Source: Chloropicon primus (Eukaryota). From it: 64,000 nucleotides of DNA. The stretch is from assembly GCA_023205875.1 (NCBI GenBank), contig CP060764.1:558001-622000 (forward strand), read 5' to 3'. The translations under genes and the position numbers were made by a program. Below the pieces are notes generated by a model. That model ran no database searches, was not told the origin of the DNA, and was given only the letters and a program-made list of their open reading frames with translations. Below, piece after piece: positions 2,814 through 59,377 of the stretch (its first letter is position 1; each line of letters opens with the position of its first letter).

Positions 2814-5123
2814 TCAAGGCCACTCGATCTTGTCCAGGTCCTCTGCCGTTGGGTTCTCCTTGGGCGATTCCCTCGGGTTCTTGCCGCTCGACCCCACCCC
2901 GCGAGGCTTGTAGACGGCCCTGGGGACCTTGGCGCCCGCACCCTGCGCGCTGCTCGGCTGCTGCCCCTTGACGGCCTGTGCAGCCCCCGATCGACCCGCC
3001 GGCCTCCTGCCCCTGTAGGCCCCCCCCCCGGAGGACATGCCGCCGGCGCCCGAGTCGTGCGCCATGACGATGACCTCGGGCCTCTTGTTGTTGTGGCTTT
3101 TGCAGCACCTCCTGAGCTCCTCCGAGACGACTTTTTCGATCTCGTTTAGGGACGAGTTCAGCGGCAGGTCCTTCAAGCGAGTCTTCACGAACCGGTTCAT
3201 CTCGGAGATGAGCCTTCCCTCGTCGATCCACATGGCCCTCGCCGTTATCCTCAGGTTGACCTGGATGCCGGTCGGGACCTTCTCCCTCGCCTTCGCCTTA
3301 GTCTTCGATGCCAGCCTGTTCATCACCTCGACGTTGGTGAACACGATGCCCTCCTGGGCGATCTTCATCCTCTCGTACAGCTGCATTTGGTCCGAGGTGC
3401 CCGTCCCCTTGCCCCCGTCGTTGTAGAAGCTGAAGAGCTTGACGTTACCGACGACCTTGGCGAGGGAGGACAGCTCCCCGACCTGGCTCGCGCTTCTCTT
3501 GGCCCCAAACCCGATCATCTGGCCATTCCTGATGACGTTGGTGTTCTTAATCCCGCAGTGCTGCTCCGCCATTGCGGCGTGGGCCTGGAGGAAGGCGTAC
3601 TCCCCGTGCACGGGAAGGAAGTTGTCCGGGTTGACCATCTTCAGCACCTCCTTCTGCTCCTCCTGGTACGCGTGCCCACTCGTGTGGAGGTTCTCGTCCC
3701 GGCCCATCGCGATCTCGCACCCGTAGCCGGCGAGGGAGTTCATCATCTTCATCACCCTGGACTCGTTGCCGGGGATGACCTTGGCGGAGTAAAGGATGAG
3801 GTCGTCCGGCTGGATCTTCAAAAATGGGCTCGCCCCGAAGGCGGCGAGGTTCAGCGCCGCCCTGGGCTCCGCCTGAGACCCCGTCGTGACGATGACGAGC
3901 TTGTTCGCGTCGTACCCATCGATGGCCTCCTCGATGTCGAGGAGCTCCGCCGGGTCGAAGGGAGCCCTCCCGGCCCTGTGGGCGGCGTCCAGGTACTGGG
4001 CGAGCGAGGGCCCCGCGAACGCGAGCTTCCTCCCGCAGGCGTCCGCGGCCTTCTTGAGGAGCCCGAGCCTGTTGATGTTGGAGGCGAACTGGGTGGCGAT
4101 GATCCTCCCCTTCCCGTGGTGCCCCGCCATCCGGTTGGCCAGGGCCAGGCCCACGTCGGACTCGCTCGTCGTCCTGCCCGGCGCCAGGACGTTCGTGGAG
4201 TCGCTCATCAGCAGGGTGGCGCCCTCCTGGCCGATCCTCTCCAGGGTCGTCCTGTCGAAGGCGTCCCCGTCCAGGTCCTCGGGCTTCTCCTCTATCCGCC
4301 AGTCCCCGGTGTGCACGATGTTGCCGCTCTCGGACCTGAAGATGCAGCCTATGCAGTCCGGGATGCTGTGCGTCACCCGGAAGCTCTCGAACTCGAACGG
4401 CCCAGTCTGAAACCTCTGCCCGACCTCGAACGTCTTGAACCTCGACGTGTTCCACAAGTTGTACTCCTTCATCCTCCTCTCGATCAGGTTCATCACGAAC
4501 TTGGTGGCGTACACCGGCGTGCTCGGGTCCAGCCCCGGCAGAACCCAAGCCAGCGCCCCGATGTGGTCCTCGTGGCCGTGCGTGATGATCACGCACTCGA
4601 TGAGATCCTTCCACTGGTGGAGGAAGCTCGTGTCGGGCAAAACTTTTTGCATCCCTATCTCGGCAAAGTCAGGGAACATGAGGCCCGCGTCCAGCATGAT
4701 GTACCTGTCCTTGTGCCCCACCAGCATGCAGTTCATCCCAATTTCCCCGAGGCCTCCTATGGGGAGAATCCTGAGGGGCGGGCCCTGGCCCTTGGGCGGC
4801 CCGGGGAAGGGACGGTTTCCACGGGACTTGAGACTCGACCCGAGGTGGCTCACCCCGTCGCTAGACTTCCTCAGTCGAAGCCGCTTCTTCAGGAACGGGC
4901 TCTTCTGGCCCCCGCCCCCCCCGCCCCTGCCCCTCCTCTGGCCGGCCTTCACGGCGACGTCCCTGCCTTCGCCAAAACTCCAGCGTGACGAGGCCACCGT
5001 GGCAGCGCGACGACGACCACGACGAAAACGACCACGACTAGAGCATGACGACGACGACGTCGTGGCGGACGACCTCGTCGCCTTGGGCGCCACCGTGGCA
5101 GCACCCGTCCCGCTCGCCCTCAT
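2814..5123 (-). CDS. RNJ: Ribonuclease J (metallo-beta-lactamase/beta-CASP), plastid-type
   Basis: PIGGLGEIGMNC, ITHGHEDHIGAL, HSIPD, HTGDW, HTSGHA and PVHGE motifs; Ser/Arg-rich N-terminal transit peptide from ATG 5123. Confidence 0.93.
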   Translation of the reverse strand: MRASGTGAATVAPKATRSSATTSSSSCSSRGRFRRGRRRAATVASSRWSFGEGRDVAVKAGQRRGRGGGGGGQKSPFLKKRLRLRKSSDGVSHLGSSLKSRGNRPFPGPPKGQGPPLRILPIGGLGEIGMNCMLVGHKDRYIMLDAGLMFPDFAEIGMQKVLPDTSFLHQWKDLIECVIITHGHEDHIGALAWVLPGLDPSTPVYATKFVMNLIERRMKEYNLWNTSRFKTFEVGQRFQTGPFEFESFRVTHSIPDCIGCIFRSESGNIVHTGDWRIEEKPEDLDGDAFDRTTLERIGQEGATLLMSDSTNVLAPGRTTSESDVGLALANRMAGHHGKGRIIATQFASNINRLGLLKKAADACGRKLAFAGPSLAQYLDAAHRAGRAPFDPAELLDIEEAIDGYDANKLVIVTTGSQAEPRAALNLAAFGASPFLKIQPDDLILYSAKVIPGNESRVMKMMNSLAGYGCEIAMGRDENLHTSGHAYQEEQKEVLKMVNPDNFLPVHGEYAFLQAHAAMAEQHCGIKNTNVIRNGQMIGFGAKRSASQVGELSSLAKVVGNVKLFSFYNDGGKGTGTSDQMQLYERMKIAQEGIVFTNVEVMNRLASKTKAKAREKVPTGIQVNLRITARAMWIDEGRLISEMNRFVKTRLKDLPLNSSLNEIEKVVSEELRRCCKSHNNKRPEVIVMAHDSGAGGMSSGGGAYRGRRPAGRSGAAQAVKGQQPSSAQGAGAKVPRAVYKPRGVGSSGKNPRESPKENPTAEDLDKIEWP

Positions 5124-42061: not shown

Positions 42062-43776
42062 ATGGTTCTTCGTCGAAGGGGGAGCCGTTACGCGTCGTTA
42101 CGTCTGAGTGGAAGCGGAAGCAGCATGACGAGGAGTGGGGCGTGGGTACTTGCTTTGGTGGTGGTTCAAGCCATCGCTTGTGGGGTCGGTGGCCAGGAGG
42201 ACTTGTCGGGCCGTCCCACCGATCTCGAGGCCACGGAGACGTCGCCCAACGACTTGTCCATGCTGAGCGACGAGGAGCTTATGGCCGAGCTCGAGCGCAG
42301 GAAGGCGGAGCTCGGAAGGAGGGAGCCCCTCCGACGAACGCAACTACGAGGGGTCCGGACCTCGCCGCACTTGACGAGATCGCGATTCCTTACCCGCGGA
42401 ACGACAGCAACTACTACTTGAGCGCAAACGAGACGGTGCCATCTTACCCCATCGACAACAGCGCGTTCCAGGCTCCGGTGAAGGATTTCGTCCGAGTCTT
42501 CGACGGCGAGTTTGTCGTCGTCAGCAACACTAGCGGCGTCGCGATGTGCAAGCCCTTCTTCCTGACGGGATGGAACTCATGGGACGTCACCAGGGTCCCC
42601 AGGATACAGTCGTACAGGAGCATGAACGGCCAGCGGGCCCTGACGCAGCAGCTGCAGACGGCCTCCCAGAGCGGACTGAACGTCCTCAGGGCCTGGGCCC
42701 ACACCATCGATCCGAGCTACCCCGTGATGAAGGCCCCGGGGGAGTACGACGAGGAGGGCCTCAAGGCCATCGACTACCTGCTGAGCGAGGCGAGCAAGTA
42801 CGGCATCAGGGTCGTGCTCTCCTTCGTGGACAACTGGAAGTACCCCGGGGGCGTGGACCAGATGCTGGACTGGAGCGCCACCGCGCCGGAGAGGGAGATC
42901 CCGGTGCCCGGCTCCCTCCTCGAGGGGGGGGACTATAACCAGAGATCTCTGTCCGCGGACGTCAAGAATTACATCGTGCGGAGACACAGCTTGTTTTACA
43001 CGGACGAGGGGGCGAGGGACATTTACAGGGACTACGTGAGGACCTTGGTGAACAGGAAGAACGCGTACAATGGCAGAGTGTACAAGGAGGATCCCACCAT
43101 CCTGGCGTGGAACCTCATCAACGAGCCCAGGTGCGAGTCCTGGCTGGTCTGGGATTGCAAGGAGAAGCTCCAGGCTTGGATCGAGTCCGAGTCGGCGTAC
43201 GTGAAGGAGCAGGACCCCAACCACCTGGTGACCGTGGGTGAGGAGGGATTCTGGTCGAGCGGGAGTCCGAACGAGTACGCCAACCCCACAAGCTGGGCCA
43301 AGGACATGGGCCAGGACTTTAAGCTGAACCACATGCCCAAGGACATCGACTTTGCGACCATCCACATTTGGCCGGACACGTGGAAAAGACCCGAGGAGTC
43401 CTTCCAGAGGTCTTGGATCCTCACGCACATGAGGGAGGCGGAGGAGGAGCTGGGCAAGCCGCTGGTTCTGGAGGAGTTCGGAAAGAGCATCGAGAGCTAC
43501 GAGGATGGCATCGAGGCGAGGAACCAGGTGTACCGATCGGCGCACGAGCTTGTCGAGGAGAGCGTGAGGAATAATCGAGGTTTGAAAGGCTCGATCTTTT
43601 GGAACTGGGAGTCCAATCTCCTGCGCAAGCCGGGGACGTATGAGGTGGACACCGAAGACACCACGTTCGCGCTCATCAAAGAGCACACGGGGAGAATGAA
43701 GGAAATCCAAGCGAAGAAGCAGGCTTTCGATTGCGAGGACGCGGCGGCGGCCAGGGTGCTTTACGCCCCAAAGTAA
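42062..43776 (+). pseudogene. GH5 endo-beta-1,4-mannanase copy A, frameshifted at ~42312-42316 (pseudogene or assembly error)
   Basis: The signal-peptide N-terminus (ATG 42062) is in a different frame from the catalytic domain (WNLINEPRC, VTVGEEGF, LVLEEFGK); no convincing intron bridges the two. Confidence 0.7.
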
Positions 43777-43830
43777 AGAGTTTTAATTTGAGTCCAGAAT
43801 AAAATTCTTTTTGGAAAAAAAAATCCACGA

Positions 43831-45501
43831 CTAGACCTCGCATCGGAAGGAGCACTTTTGGGCAGACATTTCGTTCATTCGCCTGGCGTGCTCCTTGACG
43901 AGCTCGAACGTCGAGTCCCCGTTGTTGATTTCGTAGCTTCCAGGGCTTCGGATCAAATCCGTCTCCCAGTTCCAAAAGCACGAGCCTTTCAAACCTCGAT
44001 TCTTCCTCACGCTCTCCTCGACAAGCTCGTGCGCCGATCGGTACACCTGGTTCCTCGCCTCGATGCCATCCTCGTAGCTCTTGATGCTCTTTCCGAACTC
44101 CTCCAGAACCAGCGGCTTGCCCAGCTCCTCCTCCGCCTCCCTCATGTGCGTGAGGATCCAAGACCTCTGGAAGGACTCCTCGGGTCTTTCCCACGTGTCC
44201 GGCCAAATGTGGATGGTCGCAAAGTCGATGTCCTTGGGCATGTGGTTCAGCTTAAAGTCCTGGCCCATTCCCTTGGCCCACCAAGTGGGGTTGGCGTACT
44301 CGTTCGGACTGGCAGCAGACCAGAACCCCTCCTCGCCCACGGTCACCAGGTGGTTGGGGTCCTGCTCCTTCACGTACGCCGACTCGGACTCGATCCAAGC
44401 CTGGAGCTTCTCCTCGCAATCCTCGACCAGCCAGGACTCGCACCTGGGCTCGTTGATGAGGTTCCACGCCAGGATGGTGGGATCCTCCTTGTACACTCTG
44501 CCATTGTACGCGTTCTTCCTGTTCACCAAGGTCCTCACGTAGTCCCTGTAAATGTCCCTCGCCCCCTCGTCCGTGTAAAACAAGCTGTGTCTCCGCACGA
44601 TGTACTCCTTCACCTCCTGTTCCAGGTTGTCTTGGTTGTAATCCCCGCCCCCGAGGAGGGAGCCGGGCACCGGGATCTCCCTCTCCGGCGCGGTGGCGCT
44701 CCAGTCCAGCATCTGGTCCACGCCCCCGGGGTACTTCCAGTTGTCCACGAAGGAGAGCACGACCCTGATGCCGTACTTGCTCGCCTCGCTCAGCAGGTAG
44801 TCGATGGCCTTGAGGCCCTCCTCGTCGTACTCCCCCGGGGCCTTCATCACGGGGTAGCTCGGATCGATGGTGTGGGCCCAGGCCCTGAGGACGTTCAGTC
44901 CGCTCTGGGAGGCCGTCTGCAGCTGCTGCGTCAGGGCCCGCTGGCCGTTCATGCTCCTGTACGACTGTATCCTGGGGACCCTGGTGACGTCCCATGAGTT
45001 CCATCCCGTCAGGAAGAAGGGCTTGCACATCGCGACGCCGCTAGTGTTGCTGACGACGACAAACTCGCCGTCGTAGACTCGGACGAAATCCTTCACGGGG
45101 CCGGGGGACGCGTCGTTGTCACGGAAGCACGTGCCGTTCTGTGCGTACGCCGGAACGATCTCCTCGAGGACCACGCTCTCCTCGATCTCTGGTGGGGCGT
45201 CCCCATCCAAAAGCTGCTCCGAAGTCTTTCGCGCGAGCTCGGCCTTCCTGCGCTCGAGCTCGGCCATAAGCTCCTCGTCGCTCGCGGACATTAACGTCTC
45301 GAAGGACAAGTCGTTGGGCGACGTCTCCGTGGCCTCGAGATCGGTGGGACGGCCCGACAAGTCCTCCTGGCCACCGACCCCACAAGCGATGGCTTGAACC
45401 ACCACCAAAGCAAGTACCCACGCCCCACTCCTCGTCATGCTGCTTCCGCTTCCACTCAGACGTAACGACGCGTAACGGCTCCCCCTTCGACGAAGAACCA
45501 T
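43831..45501 (-). CDS. GH5 (subfamily 7-like) endo-beta-1,4-mannanase copy B, intact and secreted
   Basis: Signal peptide (AWVLALVVVQAIACG); GWNSW, RAWAH, DNWKYPGG, catalytic NEP and EEFG, DFATIHIWPD. Confidence 0.9.
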   Translation of the reverse strand: MVLRRRGSRYASLRLSGSGSSMTRSGAWVLALVVVQAIACGVGGQEDLSGRPTDLEATETSPNDLSFETLMSASDEELMAELERRKAELARKTSEQLLDGDAPPEIEESVVLEEIVPAYAQNGTCFRDNDASPGPVKDFVRVYDGEFVVVSNTSGVAMCKPFFLTGWNSWDVTRVPRIQSYRSMNGQRALTQQLQTASQSGLNVLRAWAHTIDPSYPVMKAPGEYDEEGLKAIDYLLSEASKYGIRVVLSFVDNWKYPGGVDQMLDWSATAPEREIPVPGSLLGGGDYNQDNLEQEVKEYIVRRHSLFYTDEGARDIYRDYVRTLVNRKNAYNGRVYKEDPTILAWNLINEPRCESWLVEDCEEKLQAWIESESAYVKEQDPNHLVTVGEEGFWSAASPNEYANPTWWAKGMGQDFKLNHMPKDIDFATIHIWPDTWERPEESFQRSWILTHMREAEEELGKPLVLEEFGKSIKSYEDGIEARNQVYRSAHELVEESVRKNRGLKGSCFWNWETDLIRSPGSYEINNGDSTFELVKEHARRMNEMSAQKCSFRCEV

Positions 45502-54114: not shown

Positions 54115-55851
54115 TTACACGGTCGGGAGGAACTGTCCCACTCCGTGCTCGTCTGCCGTCTCCCTGAAGTCTTGTTCCACGGACGGCAAAGTCTCTGTTC
54201 CCGGCTCGTACATGATGTAGCCATCGCCGCTCGCGACCTGCTTCATCACCCTGCTCGTGAACAAGCCGAACCTCCCGATGTAGTTCATGAGGCTTGGCCT
54301 CAGTTCTTTCCCCTCCTCCGGCCTCGCCTCCACCTTCCAGCCACAGACCTCGCCGCACCTTTCGCAATGGATTGAACGGTACTGGAGCCCGTAGGGCACC
54401 ACACCTATCAGACCAATCTGGTCTCCCGTCCTGATGTTCGACACTCGAGACATAAATAGGCCCTCACCGTCGCCGTCCGGGTCCAAGTCCTGGGGCAGGA
54501 GCCACCCAGTTCTCGGGTGGCTCAATGTCAAGACTACGTCCGAGGTGAACCCGATGACGCTGCCGCAGGCTCCTGAAGTTGGCGACTGGAATTGGCACCT
54601 CAATAACTCCTTCCCGCCCGAGGCACGGCCGTCCTCCTGAGCGGGTGCCAGAAACCGCTGAACGTAGTGGTGCACCCCAGTGAACCTTCTAAGGAGCATG
54701 AGGTACTCCATGATCGCGCTGGTGTTCAGGTCGTGGGAAACCACGGCCTCCGCGAATGCCACGTTCTTTGCATCCACGCTTGTGAGGTCGAACTTGAACC
54801 CCACGTAAACGCCGCACCCTGAGCAGTAGAGCTGGTGGATGATGGGGCTGTTGAGCACCCTTGCCAGTTTGTTATACTGGATGTAACGGATGCTGTACTC
54901 CTTCTGCAAATACATGTCGAGCATTTGAAGCACTTTCGTGTCCATCGTGGAAAGCGTGATCATCCCTTCGCTCTTCGTCCTCACGCCTCTCAGTCCGTCT
55001 GGCGGTTCTTTTACGACCGCGAACTTGCCAGAGTCCCCCGAAAGCCCCATCCGCAGACCCCTCAAGACCTCTTTCTTGTGATAGATACGTTTTTTGCAAG
55101 CCTTGCATTCGTACCAGCCGCTCTCGTCGCACAGACGGCCGCACGTCTCCCCGAGCCGCTTGCAGCTCAGGGCGAGTCCCGCCAGATCTCGTGAACAAAG
55201 GTTCCCAGCACAGATCAGGGACAGGACTGACTCAGGGAGATCATCCAGGCCCCCCGGCCTCGCGTTCTCCACCTCGCCGTTCCCCCCCGCTCCCTCTTCC
55301 CCGTTCCTCCTCCCAATGATTTCCAGGATCTCATCCAGTGACGCCTTCACCCCCGCGCTCCCCGTCGTGGTGTCCAGCCGAACATAGTAGTCCGCTCCCA
55401 GCACCAGCGGGTCGTACTCAAAGCTTCCATGGTACGACCGAATCAAGCCCTGCAGCTCGTCCCAAGTCTGCGGCTTGTGGCCGTCTCGGGCGGACGAGGT
55501 GGAGGCCCTCTCCTCCAGCCTCCTTTTCCACACTTGCTCGTTCGAGGCGTAGCACTCGACCACAAACAGCTTCGCCGCTGGCCCGGCCGCCTCCTTCGCT
55601 TGCTCGAATTGCCGCTCGCTCGATAGGGTTGCGTCCACCACGCAGGTGACTCCTAACCTCGCCTGCTGCTTCACGACACTCCACAACACTCGAAGAGAGA
55701 TTTCGTTCGCGTCTTCCTCCGTCCTTCCCACGAGCTCTGCTTTGATATCATCCTTGTCCAAGAGCGGCAACTTGGCCCTCCGAGCCAACTCCCTCGCGAC
55801 CGTCGACTTCCCACTGCACGGGTGGCCCTTCAACACCACAACCCAACCCAT
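54115..55851 (-). CDS. P-loop kinase (AAA_33-like) + F-box + two Yippee/Mis18-like Zn domains
   Basis: KGHPCSGKST...LLDKDDIK; LDDLPESVLSLIC...DLAGLALSCKRL; YECKAC...LYCSGCGVYVGFKF; C..(GACG)...IHCERCGEVCGWK...YIGRF. Confidence 0.72.
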   Translation of the reverse strand: MGWVVVLKGHPCSGKSTVARELARRAKLPLLDKDDIKAELVGRTEEDANEISLRVLWSVVKQQARLGVTCVVDATLSSERQFEQAKEAAGPAAKLFVVECYASNEQVWKRRLEERASTSSARDGHKPQTWDELQGLIRSYHGSFEYDPLVLGADYYVRLDTTTGSAGVKASLDEILEIIGRRNGEEGAGGNGEVENARPGGLDDLPESVLSLICAGNLCSRDLAGLALSCKRLGETCGRLCDESGWYECKACKKRIYHKKEVLRGLRMGLSGDSGKFAVVKEPPDGLRGVRTKSEGMITLSTMDTKVLQMLDMYLQKEYSIRYIQYNKLARVLNSPIIHQLYCSGCGVYVGFKFDLTSVDAKNVAFAEAVVSHDLNTSAIMEYLMLLRRFTGVHHYVQRFLAPAQEDGRASGGKELLRCQFQSPTSGACGSVIGFTSDVVLTLSHPRTGWLLPQDLDPDGDGEGLFMSRVSNIRTGDQIGLIGVVPYGLQYRSIHCERCGEVCGWKVEARPEEGKELRPSLMNYIGRFGLFTSRVMKQVASGDGYIMYEPGTETLPSVEQDFRETADEHGVGQFLPTV

Positions 55852-56020
55852 CACGGGCAGCAAACCCGAAGATAAGATATTGATTATTGATAAGGGGAAC
55901 GAAGGAGAGCGAGAGGTCGAACTGGGTTGGTGCTGCTTCGTCTGATGAGTGGTAGACGTGGTGGTGGTGAGGGAGCGGAAGGACAGAGGAAGTCCACAGG
56001 TGGGTGACCGTGTGCCCGCC

Positions 56021-56773
56021 ATGCTGAGGTTTCTCAGGCCAGCAATCTCTATCTCTGCGTGGAGGAAACCATCATCATCATCGTCATCAACAACATCATC
56101 AACAACAACAACATCAACGTTATTGTTATCGTGGAGGCTGGCTTGCAAGGGTGGCGAGGAGGAGCGCGGGTACCAGACCATTGCGGGCGTGACTCGAGCC
56201 GAGCTTGAGGCGAAGAAGTCCAAGTTCGTGGCGATTGCTGCACCGGTGCGGACGCCCGACGAGGCGATGGAGTTTCTTCGTGGCGAGGCGGACGCGGCGG
56301 CTTCTCACAACTGCTTTGCGTATAAGATCGGCTGGGAGCAAAGGTCGAGCGATGATGGCGAGCCTTCGGGGACAGCGGGCCGCCCGATCCTCTCCTCCAT
56401 CGAGCAAGAGCAACTGGACGGCGTCTGCGTGGTCGTGACACGGTACTTCGGAGGCGTGAAGCTGGGGACAGGTGGCCTCGTGCGAGCCTACGGCCAGTCT
56501 GCGCGAGAGTGCTTGAAGCTCGCGGACCGGGTCGAGGTGAAGCCAATGCTGCGGAGGCAGCTCGCGGTGGGCTTCGAGGACATCGGCCCCGTCTTCAGCT
56601 TCCTCGACGCCTCGCAGGACCTCTTGCGGAGGGTCAGGGAGGACGCGTACGTCGACGAGGGCGTCGTGGTGACCGTCGAGATGGGTGTGGAAGCCGCGGG
56701 GGAGGTGGACGACCACCTGAAGCAGGTGACGCGCGGAAGGGTCTTCCTGCGAGACCTCGGAGAAAGCAAATGA
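56021..56773 (+). CDS. IMPACT/YigZ family protein (UPF0029)
   Basis: KKSKFVA, ASHNCFAY, DDGEPSGTAGRPIL, VTRYFGGVKLGTGGLVRAY. Confidence 0.93.
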   Translation: MLRFLRPAISISAWRKPSSSSSSTTSSTTTTSTLLLSWRLACKGGEEERGYQTIAGVTRAELEAKKSKFVAIAAPVRTPDEAMEFLRGEADAAASHNCFAYKIGWEQRSSDDGEPSGTAGRPILSSIEQEQLDGVCVVVTRYFGGVKLGTGGLVRAYGQSARECLKLADRVEVKPMLRRQLAVGFEDIGPVFSFLDASQDLLRRVREDAYVDEGVVVTVEMGVEAAGEVDDHLKQVTRGRVFLRDLGESK

Positions 56774-56818
56774 GCTCTTGTGTTGCATTGCATCATCACC
56801 TTTCGTCGTCGTCGGTTT

Positions 56819-56976
56819 CCACCTCAGCTTCCTTCTGCGAAGGCGTACAAGTGCGAGGTGTGTGGCTTCAAGTGCGTTCGGGACGACAACGCGGCAATGC
56901 GGCTTCTCAAGCACTTGTGTGCATGCAATCGATCAAAAGTAATGTAGGCTCTTCGGGACCTGGTCCCTGGAGGATG
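56819..56976 (+). mobile_element. 3'-terminal remnant of a TnpB/Fanzor-like RNA-guided nuclease gene with a downstream hairpin (putative non-autonomous element / omegaRNA scaffold)
   Basis: Hand translation of 56819-56947: PPQLPSAKAYKCEVCGFKCVRDDNAAMRLLKHLCACNRSKVM*, i.e. a second Zn-ribbon CxxCG plus the RuvC-III RDxNAA motif. No upstream start or RuvC-I/II. Palindrome GGGACC-T-GGTCCC at 56955-56967. Confidence 0.65.
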
Positions 56977-57011
56977 CCCCCTAAAACCCTAAAACCCCTA
57001 AAACCCTAAAA
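56977..57011. repeat. Interstitial telomere-type repeat, four units of CCCTAAAA (TTTTAGGG on the minus strand)
   Basis: CCCCCTAAAA CCCTAAAA CCCCTAAAA CCCTAAAA read directly; TTTTAGGG is a known green-algal telomere motif. Confidence 0.85.
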
Positions 57012-57313
57012 TTCGGTCCCATCTTCTGGATTTCTTTCAACGGGTTCGACGGCGGAAGAGACAGTCGCGGACTGACACGGACTGTGACTGTGACTGTGAC
57101 TTGTGCGGCGACGCGGGGGCGTGACAGGCGACGGGGAGGGCTCTTCGTTTTCGGCTGCGGACCGAGTGGCTTGGCTTCTTTCTTGCGTCTTTTTTTCCCC
57201 GTCTTCGTCTTGTTTTCTTTTTTCGGAGGAGGAGGAGGGAGTCGCGCCGTGACGTGGCTTGAGGAATCTGCTGGACTCTCTCTCTCTCTTCTTGACGCTC
57301 GCGCTTGACGACG

Positions 57314-59377
57314 ATGCAGAGAAAGGTGGTGGTGAGGGAGAGGAGGGAGTACGCGGCGGCGCGCGGCGGGCTGTCGTCCTCCAAACCGAACTCCACGTCA
57401 AGCTTGAGGCGGGTGGAGAGGAAGACGACGCCTCTGCAGAGGGGGGAAAGGCTCAGGACGAATGTCGCCATGCCGAAGCGGCCACCGACGCACCACACGG
57501 CGAGTAGGTCCAAGGTGGAGCTCATCAAGGAGAGGAGCGACTACTTGCGCCACCCCCTGCTCGAGGACCTCGTGGACGGGAAGCCGAACGTGAGCAACGA
57601 CTCGGTCCAGCTCATCAAGTTCCACGGGTCTTACATGCAGGACGACAGGGAGGCGAGGGCTTTCGGCCGGGGAAAGGCGTACCAGTTCATGCTCCGGACG
57701 AGGCAGCCGGGAGGTTTCGTCTCCAACAAGCTTTACCTGACGATGGACGACCTCGCCACGGATTTCGGGAGCGGGACCCTGCGACTGACGACCAGGCAGA
57801 CCTACCAGCTCCACGGCGTCCTGAAGGACGACCTCAAGTCCGTCTTCAGCACCATCATCAAATCGATGGGGTCCACGCTCGGGGCCTGCGGGGACGTGAA
57901 CAGGAACGTCCTGGCGCCGCCCCACCCGTACAAGAACAGGAAGGACTACGTGCACGCGCAGGAGTTGGCCAACAACATCGCTGACCTGCTCGCTCCGCAG
58001 TCGGGGGCGTACTACGACGTGTGGCTGGACGGCGAGAAGTTCATGACGGCCGAGAAGGAGGACCCGAAGGTCACCGAGGATAGGGCCTTCAACGGGTTCG
58101 GAACGAACTTCGAGGGCTCCCCCGAGCCCCTGTACGGGGCGCAGTTCCTGCCCAGGAAGTTCAAGATCGCGATCACCGTCCCGGGGGACAACTCGATAGA
58201 CGTGCTGACCAACGACGTCGCGATTGTCGTGATGACTGGCGACGACGGCGAGGTGTGCGGCTACAACATTCTGGCCGGAGGCGGGATGGGGAGGACTCAC
58301 AACAACCAGAGCACCTTCCCGACCCTGACGGAGCCTTTGGGCTACGTGGACAAGGACGACATCTATCACATCTGCAAGGCGATTCTCGCGACGCAGAGGG
58401 ACTACGGAAGGAGGGACGACAGGAGGCAGAGCAGGCTCAAGTACCTCGTGCACTCGTGGGGCATCGACAAGTTCAGGCTCGTGGTGGAGCAGTACTTTGG
58501 AAAGAAGATGCAGCCGTTCAAGCCCTTGCCAAAGTGGGAGCACAAGAACTACCTGGGCTGGGGGGAACAAGGGGACGGCAACCTCTTTTACGGAGTCTTC
58601 GTGATGAACGGCAGGCTCAAGGGAGAGGGGAAGAAGATGCTCAGGCACCTGATCGAGAAGCACGAGCTGACCGTGATGATCAGCGCGGAGCAGAACCTCA
58701 TCTTGTGCGACATCAAGCCAGAGTGGAAGCAGGAGATCCAGGAGAGCCTGGAGAGCGTGGGGTACGTCGACTACGAGAAGTCAGACCCCCTGGACGTGAA
58801 GTCGATGGCATGCCCCGCCCTGCCCTTGTGCGGGCTGGCCCTCACCGAGGCGGAGAGGGGGATGCCCCAGATCAACGAGAGGATCCGCCGCTTGATGACC
58901 AAGGTCGGCCTGCCAAGCGACGACGGCTTCGTCATCAGGATGACGGGGTGCCCCAACGGGTGCGCCAGACCTTACATGGCCGAGCTCGGCTTTGTCGGGG
59001 ACGGCCCAAACAGCTACCAGCTGTGGCTCGGGGGGAGCCCCAACCACACGAGGCTGGCGGAGCCCTTCTTGGACAAGATGAAGATCGACAAGATGGAGGA
59101 GACCCTCGAGCCTCTCTTCTACTTCTTCAAGACCAGGAGGGCCTCCGCGGAGGAGTCTTTCGGCGATTTCTGCGCCAGGGTCGGCTTTGACGTCCTCCGG
59201 GTGTACACCAAGGCCTACGTCCCACCCCCCTCCATCGCTCAGCTCCCCAGAGTCGGCGTGGAGGCCGAGGCTTTCGAGCAGCTCAAAGCCATTGCCGAGA
59301 AGCAGAACAAAACTTTGTCCGAGGTCGCCACGGAGGCCATCGCGGCCTACAGCGCCTTTGCCCTCAAGGGCAAGTGA
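57314..59377 (+). CDS. SIR: Ferredoxin-dependent sulfite reductase, plastid
   Basis: [42 protein letters not shown]; siroheme/4Fe-4S ligands [12 protein letters not shown] and [11 protein letters not shown]. Confidence 0.96.

Follow-up and report, generated by a model that had tools for sequence, protein, structure and literature searches.

A Fanzor2 C-terminal remnant beside a telomere-like array in Chloropicon primus, probably an inert relic in a host 3' UTR

Between two host genes of Chloropicon primus, in the 64-kb stretch of DNA analysed here as a whole (the window), lie a short coding remnant and, just beyond it, a telomere-like array. On balance, we consider it probable that the remnant is a piece from the 3' end of a Fanzor2 gene, since rearranged and likely an inert relic that now sits in the 3' UTR of the upstream IMPACT gene, and that the array likely came in on its own and does not serve as a guide. 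An earlier note on this DNA had read the same arrangement as an omegaRNA whose guide would be telomeric DNA, a reading that we hold to be unlikely.

Host genes and coding remnant

The window is intron-poor, with a G+C content of 60% and some 40 genes in its 64 kb, and the gap of interest is bounded by two genes on the forward strand. Upstream stands an IMPACT-family (UPF0029) coding sequence at 56021..56773 (Pfam PF01205, E 5.6e-35), whose protein has its best named relative in Chloropicon roscoffensis at 60% identity, and downstream a sulfite reductase coding sequence at 57314..59377 (Pfam PF01077 and PF03460). At both of the two sister-species sulfite reductase loci the upstream DNA is different, and no empty site was seen in them. 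As for the wider neighbourhood, a single reverse-strand frame at 54115-56223 joins an AAA_33/kinase-like P-loop domain, a weak F-box-like stretch and a Yippee/Mis18 domain; a purine-rich stretch near the IMPACT start (55940-55975) is similar to the beginning of the sulfite reductase frame (57325-57345; loose end 57325), which is probably a matter of low complexity; and two convergent genes at 42544-45501 look like an inverted duplication, the antisense stretches 43032-43490 and 44084-44542 being identical.

Within the gap, a 55-residue forward frame with a GTG start (56780-56947) contains ...QLPSAKAYKCEVCGFKCVRDDNAAMRLLK... and closes with a TAG stop at 56945-56947; its CxxCG-x(3-6)-RDxNA motif is the only one in all six frames of the window. 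The peptide matches PF07282 (E 0.0012), NF038280 IS607_TnpB (E 0.006-0.008) and the mimivirus Fanzor2 structure PDB 9b0l (E 0.023, with three C2H2 zinc-finger chains ranking higher), all of its profile scores lying below the curated cut-offs. A search of the Atlas gave a first match of 0.96, with 30 of 30 matches in PF07282, and annotation points the same way: 14 of the 20 plasmid matches listed are annotated as TnpB or transposase (the other 6 are unannotated), as are 9 of 12 phage matches when mobile element proteins are included. Indeed, a profile built from 48 viral and phage C-termini ranked the remnant first among 1340 frame pieces (11.4 bits), a score reached in none of 60 shuffled windows, where the best was 11.1 bits. 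Protein searches with the 55 residues were less telling: one gave nothing, and another returned 31 matches with 4-19 matched stretches each, a pattern typical of multi-zinc-finger proteins. A profile search led to 436 TnpB/Fanzor-like proteins, none of them named Chloropicon in the 120 listed.

From these weak but agreeing profile matches, together with the DNA homology described below, we identify the peptide, on sequence grounds, as the C-terminal remnant of a Fanzor2/TnpB protein, in agreement with the tail proposed in the earlier note. Profile matches and high-depth contigs place the remnant at 56837..56921 (+), where it would comprise the second zinc knuckle (CxxC), the RuvC-III Asp and the next codons. 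The RuvC-I DPG and the shifted RuvC-II Glu are absent, since homology ends at ~56818, and the upstream frame lacks a first CxxC.

A multicopy Fanzor2 family in the same genome

Other genomic copies, which the earlier note had called for, do exist: a multicopy parent family is present, matching 56841-56896 at ~85% in run X1, possibly the run from which this DNA derives. Among the contigs listed for that run, seven family contigs match these positions at ~82-89% over 36-51 bases, and one subfamily contig carries the match on to 56921. Over position 56884, the family contigs sum to a depth of ~4470, against 119 for the locus (~35x). Contig depth is in itself no copy number, but an excess of this size suggests a multicopy family. 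The loose ends of these contigs read KNLGGA(K/E)V before the match and RN(I/V)LLKH after it, much like a Fanzor2 C-terminus, and one family contig was recovered from an independent metagenome run (X8). Runs X1 and X3 hold at least three family variants at 56841-56921, which differ in the RuvC-III motif and in neighbouring codons and have depths of ~3600-3900, 630-680 and 200. In X3, depth over the 3' coding part of the family sums to ~4200, compared with 284 for the contig of IMPACT. The coverage of X3 is that of an RNA run, and if it is one, the Fanzor family or its omegaRNA may be well expressed in Chloropicon primus.

The parent is likely the Fanzor2* TIR family of this alga, or an older, diverged branch of it. 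Chloropicon primus has been reported to carry a species-specific IS605-like family of 25 members (PMC6731263, in part), and at least 36 of 56 IS605 rows in the relevant supplementary material of PMC12301720 are genes of this species. Passages of 10.1101/2023.08.09.552727 and PMC10711439 describe these IS605-like proteins as Fanzor2* and place them in non-autonomous elements that carry TIRs and make variable 5-nt target duplications. The supplement of PMC10530073 has no Chloropicon rows, and 12 of the 20 supplementary files of PMC6731263, when searched, gave no match. Family motifs found no true match in viral contigs (L003 being a chance match), in metagenome contigs or in prokaryote genomes, where L004 lacks a relevant frame.

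Comparison with the family also brings out how badly this copy is damaged. Directly before the zinc-ribbon codons, at 56818..56836, lies an inverted (-) copy of the family sequence that should precede them: once the family's 5' loose end is reverse-complemented, 16 of the 19 columns agree with it, and in both sequences the inverted piece and the forward match adjoin without a gap. Of 3979 random 72-base stretches, 2.6% scored as high (P 0.026, with the position constraint uncounted). Given such an inversion, the likeness of the 'QLPS' part of the peptide is not genuine coding homology, and the whole of the upstream sequence is gone, two of the three catalytic residues with it. Around the RuvC-III Asp, the family reads RD(E/A)NGA and the window RDDNAA, and three letters are missing in frame near 56899-56902. 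Further on, 56922..56947 (+) may be a decayed frame end running up to the stop codon, on a by-eye likeness between CNRS in the window and CNSS in the family's 3' loose end; the alignment needs a 9-base gap, under half of the letters agree, and no family contig aligned there. Divergence is thus uneven, with similarity high over the key codons and low beyond them. Such unevenness fits a diverged or older subfamily; a right end more than 20% different could then have escaped notice.

Hairpin and candidate right end

Past the coding remnant, the palindrome GGGACC-T-GGTCCC (56955-56967) folds as RNA into 5 bp and a 3-nt loop, enclosed in a predicted single-copy hairpin at 56947..56978 (+). The palindrome and longer stem of the earlier note are there, but unlike the peptide and the array they do not exceed chance: the window holds 23 palindromes of this shape, and the fold z of -1.2 for 56945-56980 compares with -0.6 to +1.0 for seven other stretches and +1.0 for the entire finding.

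The note had further supposed that exactly the omegaRNA-bearing part of an element was retained, whereas what is conserved is the coding tail. Among the matches listed for X1 and X3, 56922-56977 has no second copy at 80% likeness, only the locus's own contigs appearing; X1 depth returns to 119 over 56915-56955, as it should for a hairpin stretch without such a copy, and the extra X1 depth over 56956-57037 is accounted for by array matches alone. For 12 candidate scaffold ends, single-sequence prediction found no Watson-Crick 5-base pseudoknot partner upstream, only partners containing G-U pairs; in IS607 TnpB RNA a pseudoknot is required, and one is predicted for Fanzor2* (both in passages of PMC10711439). 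Rfam returned two chance-level matches, and a bacterial promoter scan, not relevant here, returned nothing.

Could the remnant still include, at ~56977, the right end of a diverged subfamily now extinct, whose element landed beside an existing array that became a nominal guide by accident and is functionless now? We regard this as rather unlikely, although the spacing speaks for it. The array starts 96 nt past the RuvC-III Asp codon, or ~108 with the two gaps restored, which fits the relatives: in related viral and phage elements, of which 24 of 50 loci were informative, the shared sequence ends 105-138 nt past this Asp in five groups and ~250 in one. The small, stable hairpin directly before the array would suit a right end as well, as would the variable 5-nt target duplications of Fanzor2* insertions (10.1101/2023.08.09.552727, in part), were it not that 56922-56977 has no second copy at 80% likeness among the matches listed, that 56700-57320 contains neither a convincing TIR pair around the remnant nor a matching left TIR, and that direct repeats suggest that hairpin and array entered together. 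These repeats, a possible insertion footprint at 56950..57026 (+), consist of TCTTC at 56950-56954 and 57022-57026 and GGTCCC at 56962-56967 and 57015-57020; a 5-base direct repeat with 6-base inverted ends, over a span of 55-79 bases, occurs at two places in the window, the array included, the pattern having been chosen post hoc. The TCTTC repeat brackets only the 67-base unit of hairpin plus array.

The viral and phage comparison gave some observations of its own. Phage groups L011, L028, L006, L016, L008 and L043, with their kin, carry DPG-type TnpB elements whose shared sequence ends sharply 105-138 nt past the RuvC-III Asp, some of them without the zinc cysteines. The 3' ends of the 50 viral and phage elements gave no blastn match to the window DNA, and a telomere-like array stood behind none of the 50.

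The telomere-like array

The array occupies 56978..57011 (+) and reads (CCCCTAAAA CCCTAAAA) twice, an exact 17-mer duplication that points to slippage. Its four CCCTAAAA units start at 56979, 56987, 56996 and 57004, and matches to the CCCTAAAA pattern number five in the window against 0.48 expected, a count reached in none of 100 shuffles. Each unit has 3-4 C. Chloropicon telomere units, on the other hand, are reported in part of PMC12301720 as (TT)TTTAGG, ranging from TTTAGG to TTTTTAGG and always with two G, and in passages of PMC6731263 and PMC8287931 as CCTAAAAA. Read as a guide against any mix of the three reported telomere units, the array yields a best perfect seed of 9 bases, and all 22 guide starts leave at least four mismatches in 20. 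With three or four C per unit in place of two, the proposal that the guide position is filled by telomeric sequence fares poorly.

Nor do other family copies appear to be followed by the repeat, as the earlier note had wondered. In X1, eight other contig entries align with the array once one or two letters are skipped; all of them lie near single-locus depth and none at family depth. In two of them the array is preceded by at least 255 unrelated letters, which bear no clear resemblance to 56938-56977 (best P 0.05). Considering that short contigs break at repeats, a few family copies could still abut arrays. The CCCTAAAA-type arrays of several other contigs, met at the loose ends 56978 and 56979 in X1, also differ from the two-C telomere unit, and could be left over from an earlier telomere sequence. 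In mammals, telomeric arrays have been found inserted at breaks, with a duplication in 5% (rodents) to 16% (primates) of cases (PMC2246262, in part). A unit unlike the reported product of the host telomerase weakens such a break-repair origin of the array too. On a rough count of ~8 arrays, ~50 tails and ~4 Mb of non-coding DNA, an array would come to lie beside a Fanzor tail by chance in ~1% of genomes.

We might also consider the array as a host cis-element, either a telo-box-like motif of the sulfite reductase promoter or a signal for the IMPACT 3' end, with the Fanzor fragment as an unrelated neighbour; to us this seems quite unlikely. The sequence AAACCCTA, telo-box-like by a label used in land plants, occurs twice (56984 and 57001), 65-100 bases before the sulfite reductase transcript start, so that the array lies between the end of one transcript and the start of another, and similar arrays stand elsewhere in the genome. 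Yet no other AAACCCTA occurs in 64 kb with some 40 genes, and it is absent upstream of the orthologue in both sister-species loci. A telomerase RNA gene was considered and rejected: a template of ~1.5 units would be expected, four units of 3-4 C would add at least three G where the host repeat has two, and Rfam gave no meaningful match.

Transcription over remnant and array

In three of four RNA-like runs, X4, X5 and X6, one ungapped contig leads from the IMPACT coding sequence through the remnant, ending at 57020, 56985 and 57021, respectively; the fourth has no cover there. A contig of X3, a run labelled as DNA, ends at 57011, whilst the DNA contig of X1 continues unbroken. X3 looks RNA-like in its gap at 57012-57081, its high sulfite reductase depth and its lack of other array contigs. 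In three of the four such runs that cover the array, contigs end 0-10 bases past it, bearing in mind that the RNA labels are guesses and that contigs show neither strand nor true ends. Sulfite reductase transcript contigs start at ~57075-57170. Run X7 and the wild metagenomes X8 and X9 leave the locus uncovered and are uninformative.

RNA spanning the putative scaffold and the repeats, as the earlier note had predicted, probably exists, the coverage coming from long-RNA-like runs only. Its simplest reading is an IMPACT 3' UTR of 240-250 bases, longer by eye than many 3' UTRs in the window, at 56774..57021 and enclosing both remnant and array; the forward strand is taken from the gene, the contigs being strandless. 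Continuity of the RNA-like contigs with the IMPACT coding sequence is what one expects of a 3' UTR.

The same contigs could be read more ambitiously, as the precursor of a trans-acting omegaRNA that is cut from the IMPACT 3' UTR, loaded onto an intact Fanzor2* and steered to CCCTAAAA arrays, matching interstitial ones fully and telomeres partly. To this, the strongest form of the earlier note's proposal, we give very little credence. In its favour, RNA-like contigs cover both scaffold and repeats and break off shortly past the latter, and it sits well with the deep family contigs in the RNA-like X3, with the 96-nt spacing near that of related groups and with the ghost omegaRNAs that functioned with SpuFz1 in human cells (PMC10432273, in part). 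The putative scaffold, however, is not conserved with the active family and has, by prediction, neither an unusual fold nor a Watson-Crick pseudoknot partner, the match to the reported telomere has at least four mismatches, and the locus is a single one whose RNA is continuous with host coding sequence. Just as improbable, in our view, is its boldest form, in which a host 3' UTR has adopted a Fanzor guide-RNA end and the released omegaRNA sends the abundant Fanzor2* nuclease to interstitial CCCTAAAA arrays, or lets it bind telomeres without cutting (through the 9-base seed), acting as a host-encoded decoy or retargeting RNA. Were it true, a host transcript would be steering a eukaryotic RNA-guided transposon nuclease to telomere-like DNA.

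Discussion

How might an inert relic of this kind have come about? We posit that break repair deleted all but the tail of an element from an older Fanzor2* branch, the small inversion being of the kind that such repair leaves, and that the tail was then taken up into a host 3' UTR. The array would have entered either as a short insertion that duplicated its flank or as a seed of two units, later doubled, and the RNA of remnant plus array would be loaded onto no nuclease. Several observations count against this account: the array begins at a distance from the Asp codon close to that of five related groups, RNA-like contigs end just past it, and chance adjacency is rare; so too do the three-C units, the lack of an empty site and the uneven divergence. 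As a relic, the locus adds little, hinting at more than one generation of Fanzor2* in Chloropicon and at fragments that end up in host mRNAs. At the level of its listings, a full-text literature search gave no telomere-guided Fanzor or TnpB, passages of PMC12636532 included, and no transposon nuclease redirected by a host transcript to telomere-like DNA.

Several known systems offer points of comparison. In the portions of PMC11832414 and PMC10711439 consulted here, ApmFz2 (PDB 9B0L) and the IS607 TnpB of ISXfa1 share with the remnant a zinc ribbon followed by the RuvC-III motif; they are, however, whole enzymes with a 150-247-nt RNA, ISXfa1 needing a pseudoknot, and none of this is demonstrable for the remnant. 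The interstitial telomeric sequences left at mammalian double-strand breaks (PMC2246262, in part) resemble our array in its shortness (34 bases) and its short flanking direct repeats, whereas here the unit differs from the host telomere and no empty orthologous site was seen. Closer in kind are the ghost Spu-1 loci of Spizellomyces punctatus (PMC10432273, in part), which likewise have no intact nuclease gene and keep a 3' Fanzor part. Those 134 loci retain both inverted repeats and a conserved scaffold without the ORF, whilst here conservation lies in the coding tail, and what follows it is single-copy. The nearest comparison is with the Fanzor2* family of Chloropicon primus itself: although only ~100 bases are left here, partly inverted and with no TIR pair or target duplication identified, protein homology points to the same genus, the genome holds a multicopy family with a Fanzor2-type C-terminus, and the depth ratio of family to locus is comparable in magnitude to the 25 members reported.
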